Source: an uncultured Micavibrio sp.
GTDB taxonomy: Bacteria; Pseudomonadota; Alphaproteobacteria; Micavibrionales; UBA2020
DNA length: 64,000 bases
Reading direction: 5' to 3'
Assembly (NCBI GenBank): GCA_964551435.1
Contig: CAZKBS010000001.1
Coordinates: forward strand, 285,422-349,421
The notes beneath the pieces were generated by a model. It saw only the letters and a program-made list of their open reading frames with translations. It made no database searches and had not been told where the DNA came from. Every line of letters starts with the position of its first letter. The stretch's first letter is position 1. Positions 6,650 to 21,933 of the stretch are shown piece after piece. The position numbers and the translations under genes were made by a program.

Positions 6650-7051
6650 TTAGCAGCAGGCCGTGCCATCCGTACCGCAGCCCGCGGGCTTTTGTTCGGC
6701 GCGCAGTTCTTTCTGGTCATTGGTCAGACGCAGACACTCGACAATTTTGCCGCCTTTGATATGACTGTCGACGATTTCGTCAATGTCGTCTTTGGTGGAG
6801 TAGGTATACCAGACGCCTTCGGGATAGATAACCATGACCGCGCCCAGCTCGCAGCGGTCAAGACAGCCTGCCATATTCACGCGTGTATTTTCGATTTTCA
6901 GCTCGCTGATGCGCGCTTTCATGTAATTGCGCAGTTCGACGCCGCCTTTTTCCTTGCAGCAGCCGCGCGGATGACCCGCCGGACGCTCGTTACCGCAGCA
7001 AAAAATATGCCGCTCGAAATAGGGTTTTTGGGCATCGCTTGGGTTGTTCAT
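6650..7051 (-). CDS. thioredoxin-like [2Fe-2S] ferredoxin family protein
   Basis: 133 aa with Cys clusters ([30 protein letters not shown]) and a ...[11 protein letters not shown]... core typical of this fold, plus an extra C-terminal CGTDGTACC. Its stop abuts the mnmE start (TAAATG). Confidence 0.75.
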
Positions 7052-7104
7052 GGCGTAATCCTTTTACTTTCGCTAAGGTAGGGCAGGAAAACCAAGGCGA
7101 CAAG

Positions 7105-9192
7105 ATGAATCTCTCCGGCAAAAACCTTTTGGGCGACGAAACCAGCCCCTATTTGCGCCAGCACAAGGACAACCCCGTGCACTGGATGCCGTGGGGTGAT
7201 GCCGCCTTCGACCGTGCCCGCGCCGAAAACAAGCCGGTTTTGCTGTCGATTGGTTATGCCGCCTGTCACTGGTGCCACGTCATGGCGCATGAAAGTTTCC
7301 AAGACCCCGCCACCGCAGATGTCATGAACAGTCTTTATGTCTGCATCAAGGTGGACCGCGAGGAACTGCCCGATGTCGACAACCTCTATCAAACCGCGCT
7401 GGCGCTGATGGGGCAGCAAGGCGGCTGGCCGCTGACGGTTTTTCTGACGCCGCAAGGCGAGGCCTTCTGGGGCGGTACGTATTTTCCGCCGCATCCGCGC
7501 CATGGCTTGCCGTCATTTCGCGAAGTATTACGCGGGGTTGCCGATTCATGGCTGCGGGAGCCGGATAAAGTCACCCATAACAGCGCCAGCATCCGCCGTG
7601 CGCTGGGCGCACTTTATACCCAAGGCGCAGGGCCCTTGCCGCTGCCCGCACAGGCGGCGCAGATTGCCGAAAAGCTTTTGCAGCGGTTTGATCCGGTTGG
7701 CGGTGGGTTTGGCGATGCGGAGTCGCCGAAGTTTCCGTGTTTACCAGCCTTGTCGTTGCTCTGGGCCTGTCATATCCGTACAGGGCAGGACAAGTACAAA
7801 TCCGCCGTTGTGCAAGCGCTAACCGCGATGTGTCAGGGTGGGCTTTACGACCATATTGGCGGGGGATTTTTTCGCTATACCGTCGACAGCGGCTGGGAAA
7901 TTCCCCATTTCGAAAAAATGCTGGCCGATAACGCACTGTTTATCGATTTGCTGACAGAAGTTTTTCGCGAAACGCAAAACCCGCTGTTTGCCGCACGCAT
8001 TGAACAGACCATCGACTGGCTTGCGCGCGAAATGGCCGTCAGCGAAGGGGGCTATAGCGCTTTCGCCAGCAGCTTGGATGCCGACAGCGTGTCGGACACG
8101 GGCGCAGCGGCAGAGGGTGCATTTTACGTCTGGCGCGCGGGGGATGTCGATGAAGCGCTCGGTGCCGATGCCGGTGATTTCCGCGCGGCCTTTGATATTT
8201 CAAAATTCGGCAACTGGCCGGGGCAGCCCGGATACAGTATCCCGAACCGCCTGTCGCAGCCGGAATGGCAGGGAGGGCAAGAACAGCGGCTGCATGCCCT
8301 TTGCCGCAAGCTACGTTTTACCCGTGAAAGCCGCTCTAAACCGGCACGCGATGACAAGGTTATATGCGATGTCAACGCGATTTTGACGGCCGCTTTGTGC
8401 CGTGCCGCTTTTGTTTTTGCACGAACGGAATGGCAAGACATGGCACTGTCCTGTTTTGAATACCTGCGGCGGTATCTGCGCGATGAGAACGGCCATCTGG
8501 CACGCAGCCGCTGCGCGCGTAGAAACGGCGCGGCGGCGCGGCTGGATGATTATGCGCATTACGGATTGGCCGCACTGGCGCTTTACGAAGCAACCCACCG
8601 CGCCGATTTTTTATCCGATGCCGCCACCGCGGCCAAATCGGTGATAGACACCTTTGCCGCAAATGGCGGCGGGTACTACATGACGCCGCCGGACAGTCTG
8701 CTGCCGCTGCGGCCACTGCATGCGGATGACAACGCCCTGCCGTCGGGCAATGCGGTTGTGGTGAAGCTGTTTTCAAGACTTGGCACTGTGACGGGCGATA
8801 TGCGCTGGCACGACGCGGCGGAAAAATGCGCCGCCAGTTTTGCCGATACCGTGGCCAGCCATATTTTCCCGCATGCCGCCCTGATTGAGGCCGCATTCGA
8901 GATGCAAACCAGTCTGAGTATCGTTATCGCAGGCGGCAGTCAGGAGGCGCGCGCCGCCCTGCACGGCGTATTGCGCAGCTTGTCTGTACCCGCGCAGGTT
9001 CTGCGACTGGAAGATGGTTCGGATATCCCGCAAGGACACCCTGCTTACGGTAAAAAAGCGGACAACGTGGCCCTTGCATGGATATGCACGGCAGGCCGGT
9101 GCCTATCGCCTGTCGCATCCGCCCAGACGTTTCGGGAAATGCTGCGCGCGGAGCGTCAGGGCACGCAGCGTCCGCCCGCCAACGACGGTTAA
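7105..9192 (+). CDS. thioredoxin-domain protein, YyaL/DUF255 family (N-terminal thioredoxin-like domain plus alpha/alpha-toroid domain)
   Basis: [18 protein letters not shown]...[15 protein letters not shown] is the DUF255 signature. The likely start is ATG 7105 (the ORF is open from 7039). Confidence 0.85.
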
Positions 9193-9303: not shown

Positions 9304-10005
9304 ATGGCAGAGACAATCACGGTAACGGCGCATGACGGCGGTTCTTTTTCGGCTTACGTCGCGCGCCCGCAAGGTGCCGGCCCGCATCCGGCCGTTGTGG
9401 TTATCCAGGAAATTTTTGGCGTGAACGCGGTGATGCGCGGCATTTGCGACAATCTGGCGAAGGAAGGTTATATCGCCATCTGCCCGGATCTTTTCTGGCG
9501 GCAGGAACCCGGTATCCAGCTCACCGACCGCAGCGAAGCGGAATGGAAGCGCGCATTTGAACTTTTTAACGGCTTTAACGTTGACCTTGGCGTTGAAGAT
9601 CTTAAGTCCACACTGGCCGCCGCACGTAGCATCAGCGGCAGCAATGGCAAGGCGGGCACCATCGGTTACTGCCTCGGCGGCAAGCTGGCGTTTTTGATGG
9701 CAACACGCTCGGATGCCGATGCGAATGTCAGCTATTATGGCGTCGGACTGGATGCCCTACTGGACGAAGCAGGCGGCATCACCAAGCCGCTGTTGATGCA
9801 TATCGCGGAAAAAGACAAATTCGTCCCGCCTGAAGCGCAAAAGAAAATTCTGGACGCGCTTTTGAACAAATCCGGCATCACGCTGCATGTGTATCAGGGC
9901 GTTGATCATGCCTTTGCGCGTGTCGGCGGCGAACATTACGACGCGGCCATGGCAGAAACTGCCAATGACCGCACGCGCCGGCACCTCAAGGCGCATCTTG
10001 CCTAA
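9304..10005 (+). CDS. dienelactone hydrolase family protein (carboxymethylenebutenolidase-like)
   Basis: 233 aa with VVVIQEIFGVN, the nucleophile motif GYCLGG and a C-terminal HAF; this is the typical DLH layout. Confidence 0.85.
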   Translation: MAETITVTAHDGGSFSAYVARPQGAGPHPAVVVIQEIFGVNAVMRGICDNLAKEGYIAICPDLFWRQEPGIQLTDRSEAEWKRAFELFNGFNVDLGVEDLKSTLAAARSISGSNGKAGTIGYCLGGKLAFLMATRSDADANVSYYGVGLDALLDEAGGITKPLLMHIAEKDKFVPPEAQKKILDALLNKSGITLHVYQGVDHAFARVGGEHYDAAMAETANDRTRRHLKAHLA

Positions 10006-10040: not shown

Positions 10041-11666
10041 ATGTCCAGACTAGAACAGCTTCCCGCACAGCCCGCCGAAGAACATTTCCAAATCCCGCAA
10101 AAGGGGGCAAAGGATCTAGCGAATATGCTGGATGGGAACGGCGTAAAGGTCGATCAGGTCCGGCTTGCCAGACACGATACGCAGGTACATCTGGTGCATG
10201 CGCAAATGCGCGTCGAGCTGAAACCGGATATGACCGTCAGCCAGCGCAGCGGCAGCCAACCCAGCGGCAAAACTATGCCCACCAAAGAAGCAGTCATGCA
10301 GGACGCTGCCGCGCAGGCGAAAACATTGGTCAGCGACGATAACGTCCAGCGTGAAATCGGCGAATTCATCGATAAAAAACCCGGACGGTCTTTTGGCGAA
10401 AGGCCTTTTCGCTTCAAGCTTGCCGCCGCGCATCAGGAATATTCGGTTATCGACAAGTGCCTGAAGTGTAACGGCGCGACGACAAACCCCTGCGGCACCT
10501 GCAGTGCCAGCGGACAAGCACCCTGTACGGGCTGCGCAGGACAGGGTGCGACGCAATGCACTGTCTGCTATGGCACCGGCCAGCAACAGCGCGGCGATGG
10601 ATCGCGCGTACCTTGCGTAAAATGCAGCGGTAGCGGCCGCAGCGTTTGCATGACTTGTCAGGGCATGAAAAATCAGCGCTGCGTCGTTTGCAACGGCAAT
10701 GGCCGCACCGCGTGTACGGAATGTGATCGAAGTGGCCACTGGACATACGTTTACGATGCGCATTGGCATTGCGAAGCGCAGTTCGAGCTGGACAGAAAAC
10801 AAACCCTTCCCGAAGTTGTCGAGGTTGTCGAACATCTGGGCATCCAGAAAACCGCGACGGAGGGGCATGCCGAAATCCTGCGGCTGATATCGGAAGTCGA
10901 AGACGACAAGCTTATTCTTCCCTATATCGCGCTGCTGCCCGTGGCGCAGGTTGAGTTTTCAATTATCGGAAAAACACATCCCGCCGTTATTGCGGGCCTG
11001 CATGGACGAATCATCGAAATCGAACCGCTAATCGACACCCTGACTAAACCGGGGGTCAGCGCCATGGTGAAGCTGTCCAAGGGCCCCATGGCGGCGGCCG
11101 CGCTGGTTGCCAGCGCCTGCCGCTTTAAAATGATACGGCAAGTTCTGGCGGGTCTTGCGCACCATAGCAAAAGCCATGTGTACCAAAAGCTGCGCCGCGA
11201 ATATCAAATTCTGATTACCGAGAAATACGCCAAAGCAACCATCCGCTACGCGGACCTTGCGCTGCTGGCATTGGCAGAGGGGCCGCGCTGGAAAGGACTT
11301 ATCGTTGGCGTTGTAGCAGCGGGCGGCATTTTTGCCGGATATTTCATGAGTCCCGTGCGTGAAACTGTGCGCGGCATGATGGTGCAGCAGCGTCTGGAAC
11401 AGCATATTCTGGCTGCCGATTTCGCGCTGTGGCTGCTGGGCTGGGGCGTAGCGGTTCTGGTCATCAAAATCTTCGCCGCAAATGCGCTCAAAAAGATTTT
11501 GCCGCAGAATGTGCAGACCGACGACCGCGGCTTGCCGGCGGCGGGGAAACAGGGATGGGTTGCACTGGGTGTAACAGCGGCAGTATGGCTCGCCGTCGCG
11601 TTTTTCTCCTCGCCCAAGCCTGAATGGATTGTCAACATTCTTCAAAAAGCCGGAATTTCGCTGTGA
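10041..11666 (+). CDS. membrane protein with an eight-fold DnaJ-type CxxCxGxG cysteine-rich zinc-finger domain
   Basis: 541 aa. Residues 140-232 (nt 10458-10736) carry CLKCNGAT, CGTCSASG, CTGCAGQG, CTVCYGTG, CVKCSGSG, CMTCQGMK, CVVCNGNG and CTECDRSG. Three predicted C-terminal TM helices follow. I recognise no other family signature. Confidence 0.7.
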   Translation: MSRLEQLPAQPAEEHFQIPQKGAKDLANMLDGNGVKVDQVRLARHDTQVHLVHAQMRVELKPDMTVSQRSGSQPSGKTMPTKEAVMQDAAAQAKTLVSDDNVQREIGEFIDKKPGRSFGERPFRFKLAAAHQEYSVIDKCLKCNGATTNPCGTCSASGQAPCTGCAGQGATQCTVCYGTGQQQRGDGSRVPCVKCSGSGRSVCMTCQGMKNQRCVVCNGNGRTACTECDRSGHWTYVYDAHWHCEAQFELDRKQTLPEVVEVVEHLGIQKTATEGHAEILRLISEVEDDKLILPYIALLPVAQVEFSIIGKTHPAVIAGLHGRIIEIEPLIDTLTKPGVSAMVKLSKGPMAAAALVASACRFKMIRQVLAGLAHHSKSHVYQKLRREYQILITEKYAKATIRYADLALLALAEGPRWKGLIVGVVAAGGIFAGYFMSPVRETVRGMMVQQRLEQHILAADFALWLLGWGVAVLVIKIFAANALKKILPQNVQTDDRGLPAAGKQGWVALGVTAAVWLAVAFFSSPKPEWIVNILQKAGISL

Positions 11667-12982
11667 TAAAACATTTTGTGACCGCCGCCGCGCTGTGCAG
11701 CCTTGTTCTGGTGTCCGGCTGCACGGGCATTTCGCGCGGCATTGCTGAAGCCGTTCTTGACCGAAAAGTCGAAGACACGCGCCAGTGCCAGATGCAGGGG
11801 CCGAAATTTGGCGGACTGCAACAAAGCCTCGACAAACATGCCAGCGACGCAAACGGCACGACCAAGGTTCTGATGGTGCATGGTATCAGCCATCACACGG
11901 CAGGCTATTCCAACCGTTTCCGCGATAGGCTGGCGGCATCACTGGGGCTTGAAATTGTCGACCCGGAGGTGAAAACCATCCAGCTGTCCGCGCCGGATAT
12001 TATGCCCACGCAGGATGGCGCGCCGCCGGAGCTTGGCACACTGCGCATCACCCGTCACAGTAGCCGCAATGACAGGCGCAGCTTGCTGTTTTATGAACTG
12101 ACATGGTCGCCGATTACGGAGGAAGAGAAAAAACTCATCCTCTATGATACCGCCAATACCGAGGGGCTGGCACGCAGCGGCATCAACCACACCATGAAGG
12201 GGTTTTTGAACGCCACTGTCCCCGACCTGCTGATTTACATGGGTGATGGCCACGATAAAATCACCGCATCGGTGCGCGAATCCGTTTGCTGGATGTTTTC
12301 CAGTGACTGGTTCGGCCTGCCCGTAGGCGGCGGGCGCTATGCCTGCCATCAGTGGCAGGGCACGGCAATGGAGCAGGTCGCAAATGATGATTATTTCTTT
12401 ATCACGCACAGCCTCGGCAGTCGCATCACGCTGGACACCATCCAGTCTTTTGTAACGGATAGCAAAAGCGCGCTGCCCGGCAGCCGCCTTCAGAGCATTC
12501 GCGGGCTGGTGCGCGATAAAGATTTCACCGTTTTCATGCTGGCAAACCAGTTGCCGCTGCTTCAGCTGGGGCGTGAGGCGCCGGCCGTCACCGGAAAGTT
12601 CCGCGAATACTGCACCGCGAACGGGGAGCTGAAAGCACAGCGTATTTTGCACCGTTTAAATATCGTCGCCTTCAGCGACCCGAACGATATCCTGTCCTAT
12701 CCGGTGCAGGACGATTTCGCGCAGCAGCATATCGACAGCCGCATCTGCCCGCGCCTTGCCAATGTCAGTATCAACGTCGCCCAGCAGCGCGACATTTTCG
12801 GCGCCGCCAGTTTTGCCGACCCGCTGACCGCGCATAACGGATATCTGGAAGATCCGCGCGTGATTTCGTTGATTACAAACGGCACGGGCGATGGCGAAAA
12901 GACGGAACCCGCGGACGGCAAATGCAGCTGGCAGGAAATGCGGCGCACGCCAAAGCCTGAAAGTCCCGCTGCGCAGCCATAA
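11663..12982 (+). CDS. lipoprotein, putative alpha/beta-fold serine hydrolase
   Basis: The GTG at 11663 overlaps the upstream stop (GTGA) and gives MIKHFVTAAALCSLVLVSGC with a lipobox (LVSGC). The alternative start is ATG 11624. A nucleophile-elbow-like motif HSLGS lies at 12407-12421, with later SDPND and AHNGY as possible Asp and His. Confidence 0.65.
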   Translation: MIKHFVTAAALCSLVLVSGCTGISRGIAEAVLDRKVEDTRQCQMQGPKFGGLQQSLDKHASDANGTTKVLMVHGISHHTAGYSNRFRDRLAASLGLEIVDPEVKTIQLSAPDIMPTQDGAPPELGTLRITRHSSRNDRRSLLFYELTWSPITEEEKKLILYDTANTEGLARSGINHTMKGFLNATVPDLLIYMGDGHDKITASVRESVCWMFSSDWFGLPVGGGRYACHQWQGTAMEQVANDDYFFITHSLGSRITLDTIQSFVTDSKSALPGSRLQSIRGLVRDKDFTVFMLANQLPLLQLGREAPAVTGKFREYCTANGELKAQRILHRLNIVAFSDPNDILSYPVQDDFAQQHIDSRICPRLANVSINVAQQRDIFGAASFADPLTAHNGYLEDPRVISLITNGTGDGEKTEPADGKCSWQEMRRTPKPESPAAQP

Positions 12983-13016
12983 AAAAACGCCCCGCTTTGA
13001 ACGGGGCGTTTTTTTA
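12981..13016. terminator. bidirectional Rho-independent terminator
   Basis: AAAAAA-ACGCCCCG-ctttgaa-CGGGGCGT-TTTTTTT, located between the convergent lipoprotein gene (stop 12982) and rho (stop 13028). Confidence 0.8.
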
Positions 13017-13027
13017 TGCGGGTTCTT

Positions 13028-14485
13028 TTACTGGTTCATCAGTTTAAAGAACTCGTCATTGTTTTTGGTGTCTTTCATTTTATCAATCAGGAATTCGACA
13101 GCATCGACCGTGCCCATGGAGGACATGAGCTTACGCAGAATCCACATCTTGCTGAGCATGCCGTCTTCGACCAGAAGCTCTTCCTTGCGGGTACCGGATT
13201 TCTGGATGTCGATGGCGGGGAAAACGCGCTTGTCGGAAATTTTACGGTCGAGCACGATTTCGGCGTTACCCGTACCTTTGAATTCCTCGAAAATGACCTC
13301 GTCCATGCGCGAGCCAGTATCGATCAGCGCCGTCGCGATGATGGTCAGCGAGCCGCCCTGTTCGATGTTACGCGCCGCACCAAAGAAGCGCTTGGGACGT
13401 TGCAGGGCGTTGGCATCCACACCGCCCGTCAGAACTTTACCGGACGATGGCACAACCGTGTTGTACGCGCGGCCAAGGCGGGTGATGGAGTCGAGAAGAA
13501 TGACCACATCGCGCTTGTGTTCGACAAGGCGCTTGGCTTTTTCAAGCACCATCTCCGCCACCTGCACGTGACGTGCGGCAGGCTCGTCGAAGGTGGAAGA
13601 AATGACTTCGCCTTTCACGGAGCGCGCCATATCGGTCACTTCCTCGGGGCGTTCGTCAATCAGAAGAACGATCAGATAGGCGTTCGGATGGTTGGTTTCG
13701 ATGGAATTGGCGATGTTTTGCATCATCACCGTTTTACCGGTACGCGGCGGCGCCACAATCAGCGCACGCTGGCCGAAGCCAAGGGGCGATACCAGTTCGA
13801 TAACACGCTGCAGCTGCACCTGGACGGGGCCTTTGCCCTTGCGCGGCGCGCCGATGGTGCCGGCGGTCGGGTCGTCCAGTTCCAGCTTGATTTTGCGATC
13901 GGGATAAAGCGGGGTGAGGTTGTCGAAGTTGATGCGGTGACGGATCTGTTCGGGATGTTCGAAGTTGATCTGGTTCACGCGCAGAAGGGCAAAGTAGCGT
14001 TCGTTGTCTTTTGGGGCGCGGATTTCGCCTTCGACCGTATCGCCGGTACGCAGGCCAAAACGCTTGATCTGGCTGGGCGAGACGTAAATGTCATCGGGGC
14101 CCGGCAGGTAGTTTTCTTCGGGGCTACGCAGAAAGCCGAAGCCATCCTGCAAAACCTCGAGAACGCCCGAGCCGGAAATAGGAATATCCTGTTCGGCCAG
14201 TTGTTTCAGGATGGCAAACATCATTTCCTGTTTGCGCAGGGTGGAGGCGTTTTCGATACCCACTTCCTCGGCATAGGTCAAAAGCTCGGCGGGGGATTTG
14301 GCTTTCAGTTCCTGCAAATCCATCGGCTTGACGTTGGGGTCACGGCGGGCCATGGCTTCTTCTTCGGCCGCAAGCTCTTCGGGCGTCGGTTCATAGGGCT
14401 GGTTGCCGTGGCCGCCATGGCCATGATGATTGCCGTTTCCATTGCCGCCGTGGCGGGAGCCGGAATGACGTGAGCGTTTTACCAC
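13028..14485 (-). CDS. rho: transcription termination factor Rho (possible N-terminal extension)
   Basis: The canonical Rho sequence begins at [20 protein letters not shown] (ATG 14323), with a Walker A motif (PPRTGKT) and an RNA-binding domain. The frame stays open upstream. GTG 14485 has a GAAAGAG Shine-Dalgarno-like element, and ATG 14353 is a further alternative. Confidence 0.95.
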
Positions 14486-14668: not shown

Positions 14669-14697
14669 AGATTATCAAAATTCCATATGATTGTCAA
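14669..14697 (-). promoter_or_regulatory. sigma70-type promoter, probably for rho
   Basis: On the minus strand: TTGACA (14697-14692), a 17-nt spacer, then TAATCT (14674-14669). This implies a leader of roughly 175 nt before GTG 14485. Confidence 0.45.
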
Positions 14698-14786
14698 CAA
14701 GGGGTCTTTCCTCGTTATTTATTAACATAATGTTATGCTTTGGGCGTTATGATTGGGGCATTGGGTTTAAAAGAAAAGGGCCTATT

Positions 14787-15800
14787 ATGTTGAAAGCGAT
14801 ATTCGGATTTTCATCCAATACCGATTTTTACAATCCGGCGGGCAAGCCGGTGCATGATCTTTTGTCCACCAAAGAAAAAATCAAAGGCCGTGTTTTGCCT
14901 CTGCTCGGGCAGGTCTCTCTTTTTGCGCTGTCTGTCGGGATGTCTGCCATGGGCGCATCGCTTGAGGAAGCGGCGCTGAGCGTCGGCATTCTGGGCGGCC
15001 TTGCCGCCTATATGCGGCATAGCCAGCTTTCGAATTACAAAAAGAAACTCGATAACGAAAATCTTTATGATTTGTCGAGCCCGCAAGACGCTGCACGTTT
15101 TCACGAAAAGTATCCGGAACACAAAGGACTGCCCGCGCAGCTGCACCTGATTGCAGCCGAAGCGGGGCTTGATAAACCCCCTTTACTGCATGTGGGCGAA
15201 AATACGGATTATGCGGCTATCCTGGATCTTAATTTCGGCAAAAAGAAAAACTTGCTGATTGAAATAAACCCCAAAATTCTGAAAGAAGAATCTCCCGCGC
15301 TGGTTGCCCATTTGCTTGCGCATGAAATCGGGCATGGCCGGCTGGGACATACAAATAGCCTGCCTGCTGTCGTTTCAGGAACAGCGATAGGTGCACATAT
15401 CAGCGCCGGTGTGCAAATGGCTGTCAGCGGAAATTATCTTGGCGGTATTTTCTATACCGCCGCCGCGCTGACAGCGCACAAGATGGCCGGCGCAAAAAGC
15501 CAGCAATACAAAGAGCGGGAATGTGACAGGCACGCGTTGCTCGTATCCGGTGTCGGGCGTGAAGCGGCGGACTTCTTTGAAAAAGGCACAACGCAGCTCG
15601 AAAAGGGCGCCCCTTTGCCGCTACGGATAGCCTTTGGCGCCATTGATACCTATCAAAGTCTGATGGCGGCGCATCCAAGCCATGAAAAGCGTACTCAATA
15701 TTTCCGTGATTTCACCGATGCCAACCGCGCGTATTTGGAAAAGACCCGCATTAAAAACGGGCTGGCTCCATCAAAACCGCACCGCTTTAAAATGGTTTAA
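14787..15800 (+). CDS. M48-family (HtpX-like) zinc metallopeptidase, membrane-embedded
   Basis: HEIGH lies at 15321-15335 (LLAHEIGHGRLGH), flanked by hydrophobic segments, with downstream ERECDRHAL and AAHPSHEKR resembling M48 motifs. The likely start is ATG 14787. GC content is visibly lower than in the neighbouring genes. Confidence 0.75.
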   Translation: MLKAIFGFSSNTDFYNPAGKPVHDLLSTKEKIKGRVLPLLGQVSLFALSVGMSAMGASLEEAALSVGILGGLAAYMRHSQLSNYKKKLDNENLYDLSSPQDAARFHEKYPEHKGLPAQLHLIAAEAGLDKPPLLHVGENTDYAAILDLNFGKKKNLLIEINPKILKEESPALVAHLLAHEIGHGRLGHTNSLPAVVSGTAIGAHISAGVQMAVSGNYLGGIFYTAAALTAHKMAGAKSQQYKERECDRHALLVSGVGREAADFFEKGTTQLEKGAPLPLRIAFGAIDTYQSLMAAHPSHEKRTQYFRDFTDANRAYLEKTRIKNGLAPSKPHRFKMV

Positions 15801-17315: not shown

Positions 17316-18374
17316 TTATGTAGCGCGCTGCCAGCTGCGGACAATCCCCACCAGCTCCGCCACATGTTCGGGTGGCGTTTCCTTGATAACGCCATGACCA
17401 AGATTGAAAACGAAAGGACGGCCTTCGGCAGCAGCCAGAATGTCGAGTGCAGCGCGGCGCATGGTATCGCCACCTGCCAGAAGTTTTTCGGGGTCCAGAT
17501 TGCCCTGCAGGCACACATGGCGCGGCATGGATGCAATATCCGCCTGCGGATCAAGACCAAGTGCGGCAATGCCCGTTTCAGCCGCATAGGCCGTGTAATG
17601 CGCGCCTGCTTGACGTGGAAAGCCTATAACGGGCACATCGGGCGCCGCCGCGTGAACCTGATCGATAACCCGCTTTGTCGGGGCAATCACCCAGTCTTGG
17701 AAATGGGCATCGGGCACAAGGCCTGCCCAGCTATCGAAAAGCTGTACGGTATCGGCGCCATGACGGATTTGCGATATCAGATAGCGTGCGGTGACATCGG
17801 AAAGCTTTAGCAAAAATTCCTGAAAGCCTCTGCTATCTGCCAAGGCCATTTCTTTCGCGCGCGCAAAACTGCCGCCACCGCGGCCATGCAGCATATAACA
17901 GGCAATCGTCCACGGCGCACCTGCAAAACCGATAAGGGTTTTATCGGCAGGCAATTCACGCTTGAGGATATCAATCGTTCGATAAACAGGCGCCAGTCTG
18001 GATTCAAAACCGGCTGTGTCCAGCCTGTCGATATCGGAAAGTTTTTCAAGCGGCGGGAGCTGCGGGCCTTCGCCTTCAATGAATGTCAAACCCTGACCGA
18101 GCGCATGCGGAATAACCAGAATATCTGAAAACAGTATAGCGGCATCAAAGTCGTAACGCCGCAGTGGCTGGAGGGTGATTTCTGCCGCCATAGAGGGGTT
18201 ATAGCAAAGATTAAGAAAAGACCCCGCCTCTGCCCGCAGAGCGCGGTATTCGGGCAGATAACGGCCTGCCTGACGCATCAGCCACAAGGGTACGCGGGGC
18301 GTGATACGGCCCTGCAGCGTTTCCAGCATGGGTTTTTCTATAACTGTTGATATCATGGCGGCCTTGCTTTGCAT
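17316..18374 (-). CDS. hemE: uroporphyrinogen decarboxylase
   Basis: PLWLMRQAGRYLPEYR and ILFSDILV motifs. The start is either ATG 18374 or ATG 18356. Confidence 0.93.
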   Translation of the reverse strand: MQSKAAMISTVIEKPMLETLQGRITPRVPLWLMRQAGRYLPEYRALRAEAGSFLNLCYNPSMAAEITLQPLRRYDFDAAILFSDILVIPHALGQGLTFIEGEGPQLPPLEKLSDIDRLDTAGFESRLAPVYRTIDILKRELPADKTLIGFAGAPWTIACYMLHGRGGGSFARAKEMALADSRGFQEFLLKLSDVTARYLISQIRHGADTVQLFDSWAGLVPDAHFQDWVIAPTKRVIDQVHAAAPDVPVIGFPRQAGAHYTAYAAETGIAALGLDPQADIASMPRHVCLQGNLDPEKLLAGGDTMRRAALDILAAAEGRPFVFNLGHGVIKETPPEHVAELVGIVRSWQRAT

Positions 18375-18884
18375 GGTTCTTTATAAGCCATGCCTTTCGC
18401 CCATCCAATATTAAAGAAAGTATATATAAGAGAATTGTAGGAGTCGTAGGCGCGTGGATGAGGGGGATAACTTCAAACAACACTATTTTTCCACAGAGCC
18501 TGTCATGCGCAATCGTCGGTTTTTTTGAAAACTTTGTGCAAAAGCCAATTAAAAACAATAAATTCAAGATGAAACGGGCTTGTGAATAACGGGGATAATT
18601 GATTATTCCGGTAAATAAACTTATCCCCGCTTTTCTATTCCGGAGTCCATGCGTGGATGGGCGGACTCATAATTCCGCAGCTTATCCCCCAAAGGCATCA
18701 CGGATCAGAAAGCCCCGCGTCTATGCACGCAGTTTTCCACACAGCTATACACAAACCATATTCCAAGCAGTCGATATCTGCATATCGCGCTCAATCTTGA
18801 GCGGTCGTTACGGCTTTTCTTCGTGCGCGAATGCCGATAGGATAAACGCTGAGCAAACGTCATCCTGAATTGGGGTAAGGGTAG
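18375..18884. other. candidate chromosomal replication origin (oriC), hemE-linked
   Basis: AT-rich 510-bp gap next to hemE. Three exact TTWTNCACA DnaA boxes: 18487-18495, 18733-18741 and 18581-18589 (reverse). Four TTATCCCC cores and two GCGTGGATG copies are also present. Origin-proximal markers (rho, mnmE, mnmG, rsmG, parAB, parS) flank it. Confidence 0.6.
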
Positions 18885-20895: not shown

Positions 20896-21933
20896 ATGGC
20901 AAACGACGTTGATAAAGACAGCGACTTCAAACTGCCCAAGCCAGACAAGCAGCGTTTTCGCAGTAGTGCGGGCCGCCTCCGCAATGGCAAACACCTGTCC
21001 CACCGCGCCAGCATGGACTGGCGTTTGGACCAGCGCACCGTTTGCGACAAGCCGGACATCGCCGCTACCATCGTCTCCGTTGAAGAGCTAAAAGAAATCC
21101 TGCTGCAAAGCCGCACCGCCGAGCAGTTGATGACGGGCGATGCCGCCGCAAATCTGCATATTGTTTATGATGCGCAAGTACCTGCATCGCAATTTTACCC
21201 GCCACGCGAAGGCCGCGGTGCCACGATCACCCTGAACCCGTTCCGCCCACGCGGCGATTTGCTGAACATGCTGGCGCGCGAACTGCGCCGCAGCTGGCAA
21301 CATTTCCACGGCGCGCTGGTCAACCCGATGGATTACGAGCCGGACGAAGCTATTCTGGTCAACCGCGCGCAGCAGGCCGATGTTTTGATGGTTTCCATCA
21401 AGGTGGCGTGGGAGCTGAAACTGGGCGGCAACAGCGAAGCCTGGGATTATCTGGTCGGATCGCCGATGTCGGATGTGAGCCGTACGTTCGAAATCAAGGC
21501 GCAAACCGATTTCCGCAGCCTGAACAATGGCGAAGCGGCGCGTGCGGCCTATGATAAATTCTTCGAAGACAGCCGCACCAAGATCCATGACAAGCGCATC
21601 ATTCACCAAATGCTGCTGGATGAAGCGGGCTACATGAAATCGCAAAAAGAGCGCAGCCGTGTATCCATGGATTTGTTCAAGCGTCTGGGCGAACTGCCGT
21701 CGGGCCGCAACTATCTGTCGATGAACGCAACACGCACGCCGATGGATACCTGCTATGCGACGGTTGAAGACCGCTCCAATGCGAATTTCCTGTGGTTCAT
21801 CAAGTTCGAACGCAGCTTTCAGGAAAAAGAGCGGCAGATGATCGAAGAGTCGGTCAAGCTGTCCGCCGAAGTTGTCGACTTCGCACGCTTTGCCAGCGCG
21901 GCGCGCCGCCCGGGCAATGCTGAGCAAGCCTGA
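20896..21933 (+). CDS. hypothetical protein, zincin-like-domain paralog family, degenerate motif (RELRR)
   Basis: 345 aa, colinear with ORFs 21945, 58571 and 59620. Shared blocks are ...LHIVYD..., LNMLARELRRSWQ (21277-21291 = RELRR), QADVLMVSIKVAWEL and AARAAYDKFF. Confidence 0.65.
   Translation: MANDVDKDSDFKLPKPDKQRFRSSAGRLRNGKHLSHRASMDWRLDQRTVCDKPDIAATIVSVEELKEILLQSRTAEQLMTGDAAANLHIVYDAQVPASQFYPPREGRGATITLNPFRPRGDLLNMLARELRRSWQHFHGALVNPMDYEPDEAILVNRAQQADVLMVSIKVAWELKLGGNSEAWDYLVGSPMSDVSRTFEIKAQTDFRSLNNGEAARAAYDKFFEDSRTKIHDKRIIHQMLLDEAGYMKSQKERSRVSMDLFKRLGELPSGRNYLSMNATRTPMDTCYATVEDRSNANFLWFIKFERSFQEKERQMIEESVKLSAEVVDFARFASAARRPGNAEQA

Follow-up and report, generated by a model that had tools for sequence, protein, structure and literature searches.

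The DnaJ-type cysteine-rich (CR) domain is the textbook two-zinc module of Hsp40 co-chaperones, and its four Cys motifs pair as 1-4 and 2-3. CR domains that lack an accompanying J domain (J-less) are known mainly from plastids. The J-less proteins BSD2 and ZnJ2 bind zinc and act as holdases (PMC5818400), and several of the plastid J-less zinc-finger proteins are anchored in membranes and work as holdases or assembly factors. The gene described here lies in a 64,000-nucleotide stretch of DNA from an uncultured Micavibrio sp. (GenBank assembly GCA_964551435.1, contig CAZKBS010000001.1, positions 285,422 to 349,421 of the forward strand), which is referred to as the window and numbered from its first letter. 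Computational analysis shows the product of this gene, the target, to be an inner-membrane protein carrying a basic hairpin rod of modular length, which descends from the DnaJ CR fold and has four predicted zinc sites. That fold itself is familiar, whereas the doubled, modular four-rung version of it and the surrounding architecture are new and occur within a widespread uncharacterised family.

The 541-aa open reading frame (ORF) and the eight Cys motifs listed in an initial annotation, made from the letters alone, are present exactly as claimed. The motifs CLKCNGAT, CGTCSASG, CTGCAGQG, CTVCYGTG, CVKCSGSG, CMTCQGMK, CVVCNGNG and CTECDRSG occupy aa 140-232 (nt 10458-10736). The description "back-to-back" does not strictly apply, since the motif starts are 11, 11, 11, 19, 11, 11 and 11 residues apart and a longer loop parts motifs 4 and 5. 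Only four of the eight fit the CxxCxGxG pattern, the xGxG part often being degenerate.

The relation of this block to DnaJ emerges from the family rather than from the single protein. The target alone has no Pfam DnaJ_CXXCXGXG match and only a sub-threshold match to GRXCR1-2_C, whereas each of the Pfam models BSD2_CRD and DnaJ_CXXCXGXG recognises 10 proteins in a set of 39 family members. Compared with PDB sequences, the family profile matches the CR domain of DnaJ (1EXK, E 1.5e-6) and Streptococcus pneumoniae DnaJ (6JZB, 3e-6), with further matches to EMB2737, DNAJA3, anti-TRAP and BSD2. Alignment with E. coli DnaJ by hhalign (96.7%, E 4.6e-10) is confined to DnaJ residues 139-191, and the tip of the rod, between motifs 4 and 5, falls on DnaJ motifs 2-3. 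An AlphaFold2 (AF2) model of aa 120-255 alone has a pLDDT (predicted local distance difference test) of 87.8, and the top 13 PDB matches of this model in Foldseek are all CR-containing structures, including DnaJA2 7ZHS (3.4e-4), BSD2 6EKB and 8ILM, DnaJ 1EXK, Ydj1 1NLT, 6JZB and EMB2737 8XKU_R. Profile and model comparisons thus agree that the motif block is homologous to the CR domain of DnaJ and BSD2, in line with the original proposal of a DnaJ-type Cys-rich domain of double length.

No other part of an Hsp40 is detectable. The absence of a J domain, as originally proposed, holds for the target and the 39 members, none of which matches the Pfam DnaJ model (PF00226); neither a J domain, a Gly/Phe-rich (G/F) region nor an Hsp40 C-terminal domain (CTD) was found by Pfam on the target and the 39 members, by hhalign or by Foldseek. 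A DnaJ CTD-like core was considered and is not supported, as hhalign gave no match beyond the CR domain and Foldseek gave no Hsp40 match for the whole model.

The Cys skeleton is the most constant element of a divergent family. Homologs were counted as identity-based cluster representatives, each cluster being defined at 50% identity. A word-indexed search found 31 clusters at 39-100% identity, all of 538-546 aa and all from alphaproteobacterial metagenome-assembled genomes, and its repetition with another alignment added no further homologs. An exhaustive profile search of 1.84 billion representatives returned 1110 proteins at E<=1e-10, of which 299 reach E<=1e-30, and nearly all of these 299 have lengths of 500-600 aa; the best 150 matches are mostly collinear full-length proteins of about 500-600 aa. 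A scan of GTDB located the family in 29 species, several of them labelled Micavibrio. In a 22-sequence alignment of close homologs, none of the 16 motif Cys varies; they are 94-99% conserved across 174 members and, together with G32 and G319, form the sole invariant columns of a 39-member alignment reaching down to 20% identity. This conservation is far beyond chance. The two outcomes that the initial annotation had named as fatal to its claim, a lack of conservation of the Cys motifs and membership of a well-characterised family, did not occur.

Outside the rod, the family-specific conserved residues among the 174 members are G-N-G 32-34, G71, G76, P300, G319, R416, G419xxxG423, R440, D460 and W529. 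With the target as seed, the hallmarks of the family are the G-N-G motif, 4+4 CxxC motifs with period 11, the invariant G319, the juxtamembrane helical domain, three transmembrane (TM) helices and a C-terminal P-x-W. Cultured distant members include a 545-aa protein on the Methylorubrum extorquens AM1 megaplasmid (NC_012811.1, about 635-637 kb) and a 720-aa protein on plasmid p1 of Azospirillum brasilense Sp7 (NZ_CP012915.1, about 572.6-574.7 kb), each of which aligns with the family profile along its entire architecture (hhalign 99.5-99.6%, E 1e-22 to 1e-24). Wherever members carry a name, it is "hypothetical" or "zinc finger-like domain-containing protein", and the cluster names of ten distant members are all "hypothetical". 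No bacterial counterpart was found in the literature, and the databases likewise yielded no characterised bacterial equivalent, consistent with the first assessment of the gene.

The arrangement of the motifs and its natural variants point to a hairpin. Eight CxxC motifs occur in 159 of 181 family proteins, and, among 161 eight-motif members, 160 are spaced exactly 11-11-11-X-11-11-11, X being 18 or 19 in 146 of them. Six-motif variants follow 11-11-19-11-11, equivalent to three motifs, a tip and three motifs, except for P0070 with its short 8-residue tip; two-motif variants have one single spacing of 11; and in two full-length variants without any motif (P0076 and P0181) the flanking strands are joined directly. 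Motif loss always takes one motif from each arm, which argues for a hairpin with nested pairing 1-8, 2-7, 3-6 and 4-5. In the AF2 model, the stretch that separates long strands 123-139 and 233-250 holds a 3-residue strand every 11 residues. Taken together, the spacing, the pattern of indels and the secondary structure imply a symmetric 4+4 hairpin with predicted nested pairing and four predicted Zn(Cys)4 rungs. By the same variants, rod length is modular in evolution, with 4, 3, 1 or 0 predicted zinc sites.

Within each repeat, conservation covers the two Cys, Gly at positions 6 and 8 (69% each) and a hydrophobic residue at position 10, and at the tip it covers only a D/N-G turn. Once the Cys and Gly of the target are set aside, the rod is less conserved than any other part of the protein, averaging 1.15 bits versus 1.5-1.8 elsewhere. 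The net charge of the rod averages +8.5, with a range from 0 to +18 and a value of +6 in the target; R, K, Q, N and H abound at the variable repeat positions, and position 9 frequently holds R, K, F, W or Y.

The rod emerges from a larger domain. The full AF2 model has a pLDDT of 87.4 and a pTM (predicted template modelling score) of 0.60. Since the rod lies between two of the long strands (123-139 and 233-250), the N-terminal region and the middle region are predicted to belong to a single beta-rich core of about 230 aa, with the rod inserted into it. The first part of this core carries a near-invariant G-N-G motif (aa 32-34, nt 10134-10142; G32, N33 and G34 94-99% conserved), and the second carries G319 (100%) and P300 (91% in 174 members). 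The helical juxtamembrane domain that follows is the best-conserved region outside the rod, with a mean information of 1.83 bits, and contains the strongest motif of the family. The flanking regions had been described as unique, which stands, as the core and the helical domain match nothing in Pfam, NCBIfam, PADLOC, PDB sequences or PDB and BFVD folds; their description as separate N-terminal and middle domains gives way to the single predicted core. Foldseek, suggested at the outset for the flanking domains, returned no similar fold in PDB or BFVD.

Hydropathy and AF2 agree on three C-terminal TM helices, in keeping with the initial annotation. The first has a conserved G419-xxx-G423, with a conserved R416 just before it. 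At the periplasmic boundary before the second lies D460, which is 91% conserved; a conserved Asp acting as a mid-membrane ion site was rejected, as D460 is at the periplasmic end of this helix. Mean counts of lysine plus arginine (K+R) in 174 sequences are 4.7 before TM helix 1, 1.5 in loop 1, 5.1 in loop 2 and 1.4 in the C-terminal tail. There is no N-terminal signal peptide. In two lineages, Azospirillum and that of P0162 with its cluster-mate P0196, the tail after TM helix 3 extends into a weak peptidoglycan (PG)-binding-like domain resembling PG_binding_1 (E 5e-4 to 9e-3, sub-threshold), and Pfam on the longest family members revealed no fusion other than weak PG_binding_1. Because of the K+R distribution under the positive-inside rule, the lack of a signal peptide and these periplasmic extensions, the predicted topology is N-in/C-out, with about 415 residues, the rod and core among them, in the cytoplasm and very small periplasmic loops. 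This answers the question, raised at the outset, of which side the zinc-finger domain faces, and the cytoplasmic placement fits Zn(Cys)4 sites. The coordinates of these elements and of the adjoining features are collected in Table 1.

Table 1. Features of the target gene and its surroundings, in window coordinates.
Feature	Position	Strand	Basis or detail
Whole gene, 541-aa member of an uncharacterised alphaproteobacterial membrane-protein family	10041..11666	+	ORF and translation
N-terminal part of predicted core, aa 1-139	10041..10457	+	AF2; beta-hairpin aa 40-70, two helices, strand 123-139 into rod
Predicted zinc rod, ascending arm, CxxC motifs 1-4, aa 140-180	10458..10580	+	Invariant Cys, period 11
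Hairpin tip loop, aa 181-191, QQQRGDGSRVP, D/N-G turn	10581..10613	+	Spacing; aligns to DnaJ motif 2-3 loop
Predicted zinc rod, descending arm, CxxC motifs 5-8, aa 192-232	10614..10736	+	Invariant Cys, natural variants, Foldseek
Second part of predicted core, aa 233-335	10737..11045	+	AF2; return strand 233-250, two helices, long strands 290-327
Helical juxtamembrane domain, aa 336-415, PG..AL.KLSKGPMA	11046..11285	+	AF2 helices 336-411
TM helix 1, aa 419-437	11295..11351	+	Hydropathy peak 1.80, AF2 helix 413-435
TM helix 2, aa 461-479	11421..11477	+	Hydropathy peak 2.17
TM helix 3, aa 505-523	11553..11609	+	Hydropathy peak 1.84, AF2 helix 503-522
Short periplasmic C-terminal tail, aa 524-541, and stop	11610..11666	+	Low K+R; conserved P527, W529
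DUF255 (Thioredox_DsbH) gene, first of probable operon	7039..9192	+	Pfam E 8.7e-71
Dienelactone hydrolase (DLH) gene, probably co-transcribed, 35-nt gap	9304..10005	+	Pfam DLH E 5e-49
Bidirectional terminator, perfect 17-bp stem, T-runs on both strands	12978..13018	.	Terminator scan

Compared with type I Hsp40/DnaJ proteins (PF00684; 1EXK, 1NLT, 6JZB, 7ZHS), the target shares the CxxC(xGxG) knuckle with detectable homology, the insertion of a hairpin between two beta-strands of a larger domain and, as predicted here, the nested pairing of Cys motifs. It differs in having eight motifs and four predicted zinc sites where DnaJ has four motifs and two zinc ions, in its strict 11-residue period and its membrane anchor, and in lacking a J domain, a G/F region and CTD I/II. 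Of the features that define a type I Hsp40, the J domain with its HPD motif and CTD I/II with the dimerisation motif are both absent, and only the CR domain, its zinc sites being predicted, is present.

The plastid J-less proteins (BSD2/ZnJ2, PF25436; LQY1, OR, CYO1, FIP, PSA2 and EMB2737 of the Ycf2-FtsHi complex) likewise have a CR domain without a J domain, a likeness reflected in the BSD2_CRD matches of the family and in the Foldseek matches of the rod to 6EKB and 8XKU_R. They are, however, small and plastid-targeted, with two to four motifs and with TM anchors that, where present, generally precede the CR domain. The target instead is bacterial, and its doubled CR domain sits inside a core of 230 aa with an unknown fold, after which come a helical domain and three TM helices. 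It thus has the CR domain without a J domain that marks the BSD2/ZnJ2 type and is not a small plastid-targeted protein with four or two motifs.

Among prokaryotic proteins, anti-TRAP (PF15777; 2BX9, 3LCZ) is a J-less bacterial protein with a DnaJ-type CxxCxGxG zinc knuckle and weak profile matches to the family (E 0.005-0.12), but it is a soluble oligomer of 53-aa subunits with a single zinc site, binds TRAP and has no membrane part. An unannotated ORF of 344 aa on the Halobiforma lacisalsi plasmid pHLAJ5I (NZ_CP019286.1; L045, 2593-3627) has about nine CxxC knuckles and matches the rod in tblastn at E 1e-7; it differs in being archaeal and soluble, with no TM region and with other flanking sequence, and it lies between SNF2-related and DUF1156 genes. 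Long CR-type rods are therefore not unique to the target family, and the Halobiforma architecture is possibly defence-related. Additionally, two huge uncultured phages, LR756502.1 (642 kb) and LR745206.1 (635 kb), have 5 and 3 places, respectively, that weakly resemble the rod (E 8e-5 and 2e-4); the records are unannotated, and these places are probably multi-CxxC zinc-finger proteins. Zinc-binding anti-sigma factors (HxxxCxxC) were compared as well, and neither the target nor the 39 members have an anti-sigma match in Pfam; no sigma-factor gene occurs among the window neighbours or the Pfam-annotated related loci.

In its genomic setting, the target follows the DUF255 and DLH genes on the same strand, as first annotated, although the gap to DLH is 35 nt rather than the 36 nt given there. 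A terminator scan found no convincing terminator between the DUF255 gene and the hairpin at 12978-13018, so DUF255, DLH, the target and the downstream lipoprotein gene probably form one transcription unit. The hairpin itself lies between the convergent lipoprotein gene (ending at 12982) and rho (ending at 13028) and is likely a bidirectional terminator. The lipoprotein ORF (452 aa, 11624-12982, +) overlaps the end of the target by 43 nt, begins with a lipoprotein-type signal (…LVLVSGC) and has no match in Pfam, NCBIfam or PADLOC. Its co-occurrence with the target, recommended for analysis in the initial annotation, extends only to the five closest species loci, in which the target is at least 74% identical, and ankyrin-repeat or other genes take its place elsewhere; the lipoprotein was rejected as a partner.

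The locus order is guaB-like, mnmE, a small Cys-rich gene, DUF255, DLH, target, variable genes, rho, hemJ, hemH and hemE. DLH directly precedes the target in 23 of the 29 GTDB species loci and also in the more distant loci L035 and L040. Members at 23-27% identity (P0064, P0075, P0100 and P0088) are still beside mnmE, rho and hemJHE, and two of these four have DLH directly upstream. DUF255 is syntenic in the close clade and missing next to the target in L029, L035, L040 and all distant contexts. The DUF255 and DLH linkage is best read, from these gene orders, as largely retained synteny. DLH as a functional partner was accordingly downgraded: it recurs in three deep clades that keep the whole mnmE-rho-hem neighbourhood, and DLH itself is 52-62% identical. 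The gene looks single-copy and vertically inherited in most lineages, at a housekeeping locus near mnmE-rho-hemJHE. In L035 and L040 the target is 24-27% identical, against 52-62% for DLH, 52-59% for mnmE, 57-66% for hemJ and 81-85% for rho (in L035, 27% against 62% for DLH, 55% for mnmE and 85% for rho). Judged by these identities, the target is changing much more rapidly than the genes in synteny with it, yet its Cys skeleton stays invariant. Other contexts include six loci in which a major facilitator superfamily (MFS) transporter and a cytosine/purine-type permease precede the target and a FecR-domain gene follows it, the FecR-domain gene being restricted to one sub-clade, as well as the end of a his operon and accessory regions of secondary replicons.

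Several further observations concern the surroundings. The small Cys-rich ORF between mnmE and DUF255 (133 aa, 6650-7051, -) has no Pfam match at E<=0.001; its identity is 59-84% in relatives and, at the distant loci L035 and L036, 64-65%, and other lineages have a DUF6489 gene in its place. At the P0162 locus, the gene overlapping the 3' end of P0162 (L036, 10163-11098) is a weak match to DUF6782, a putative metallopeptidase. At 20896-21933, some 9 kb downstream of the target, the window encodes a clear DUF6782 protein (E 1.8e-28), and 14691-15800 encodes an M48-like peptidase; a recurrent peptidase association is possible. The left edge of the window holds mreC (778-1752) and mreB (1885-2925), spanning 778-2925 on the minus strand, an ordinary housekeeping context. 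The origin of replication, oriC, of alphaproteobacteria usually adjoins hemE, and for this reason the intergenic region at 18375-18800, upstream of hemE (17316-18374, -), is a candidate chromosomal origin. It contains the DnaA-box-like 9-mers TTTTCCACA at 18487 and 18733 and TTATTCACA at 18581, with a local GC drop to about 0.505; the window-wide count of DnaA boxes, 10 found versus 6.9 expected, is not above chance.

By analogy with BSD2 and ZnJ2, we tentatively propose that the protein is a J-independent, membrane-tethered arm that binds or positions a partner. The rod would be a rigid, zinc-stapled projecting arm through which the membrane-tethered core, with no coupling to Hsp70, could capture a cytoplasmic partner at the inner membrane or position it there. 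This partner may be a folding or assembly intermediate, or a polyanion. The TM bundle, together with the small conserved periplasmic face, would anchor the protein to the envelope, and the function would be analogous to that of the J-less DnaJ-like zinc-finger assembly factors of plastids. Several points weigh against this proposal. No informative fusion links the family to any process, and synteny among relatives that are fairly close accounts for the conserved neighbours DLH and DUF255. The binding of zinc, the oligomeric state and the nesting of the pairs are all predicted, and the pTM of the full model leaves the domain arrangement uncertain. The surface of the rod is polar and basic rather than hydrophobic, which is untypical of a generic holdase, and natural rod-less and one-rung variants exist, so that the function of the core needs no rod. 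The polar, basic and poorly conserved surface and the rod-less variants weaken a classical holdase for hydrophobic clients, and they keep alive readings in which the rod acts as a tether or a ruler.

One such reading, which we consider unlikely, takes the basic rod to bind DNA, RNA or anionic inner-leaflet lipids, tethering or organising a polyanion at the membrane and, in some lineages, linking it to peptidoglycan. The mean net charge of +8.5 with almost no acidic residues, the basic and polar variable positions with R, K, F, W or Y frequent at position 9, and the PG-binding-like extensions of two lineages would suit such a role, as would, weakly and by position, the nearness of the gene to the probable origin region. 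The rod nevertheless has no recognised nucleic-acid-binding motif or fold match, its surface is poorly conserved, its charge falls to 0 in some members, and some variants dispense with it entirely. A speculative form of the ruler reading, which likewise seems improbable, would define a class of envelope-anchored cytoplasmic rulers. In these proteins, rod length in Zn(Cys)4 quanta (0, 1, 3 or 4) would hold a polyanion or protein partner at a set distance from the inner membrane, while the TM bundle, and in some lineages the PG-binding domain, would fix the assembly to the cell wall.

It is quite unlikely that the rod is a passive ruler or spacer without a ligand of its own, setting a distance or a steric exclusion while activity resides in the core of unknown fold and the TM bundle. 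The modular number of rungs (4, 3, 1 or 0), the restriction of rod conservation to structural residues (Cys, Gly, the hydrophobic position 10 and the tip turn) and the location of all specific conserved motifs outside the rod agree with it. The retention of exactly eight motifs in 159 of 181 proteins across deep divergence, however, suggests selection on the full rod, and the consistently positive charge suggests an interaction surface.

A redox or zinc switch appears more doubtful. Here the 16 thiolates would be oxidation-sensitive, as in Hsp33 and RsrA, and zinc release would unfold the rod to signal or activate, possibly together with the DUF255 protein. Thiol and redox activities are reported for the CR domains of DnaJ and ZnJ2 (PMC5818400, PMC4428491); the target has sixteen invariant Cys in Zn(Cys)4-type sites, shares a probable operon with the thioredoxin-domain DUF255 gene and has the 133-aa Cys-rich gene in its vicinity. 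Against a switch stand the absence of DUF255 beside the target in L029, L035, L040 and every distant context, the lack of a sigma factor or regulator partner nearby, and the strict period of 11 with its modular rung number, which argues for a structural role. Lastly, an anti-phage defence or toxin effector, such as a membrane-disrupting abortive-infection protein with a zinc-finger sensor, is rejected as highly improbable: similar Cys-rich rods do occur in the Halobiforma plasmid protein flanked by SNF2 and DUF1156 genes and in huge uncultured phages, and the Methylorubrum homolog is on a megaplasmid, but there is no PADLOC match at E<=1, the mostly single-copy gene has a housekeeping context between mnmE and rho-hemJ-hemH-hemE with inheritance that looks vertical, nothing in its setting points to a defence island, and the Halobiforma protein, which lacks a TM region, has only the rod in common with the family.

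Across about 300 sequence clusters every Cys is kept, although identity in the remainder of the protein falls to about 20%. Variants with 4, 3, 1 and 0 rungs already exist in nature and amount to an experiment on the contribution of the zinc finger, and the homologs in the culturable, genetically tractable Methylorubrum extorquens AM1 and Azospirillum brasilense make the function testable. If the protein is a length-setting element of the envelope, it would be the first case in which a DnaJ-type zinc-finger fold serves as a structural element of tunable length and not as a chaperone module. If it is a membrane-tethered holdase or positioning arm, it would widen the known uses of the DnaJ-type CR fold in bacteria and provide a bacterial comparator for the plastid assembly factors.

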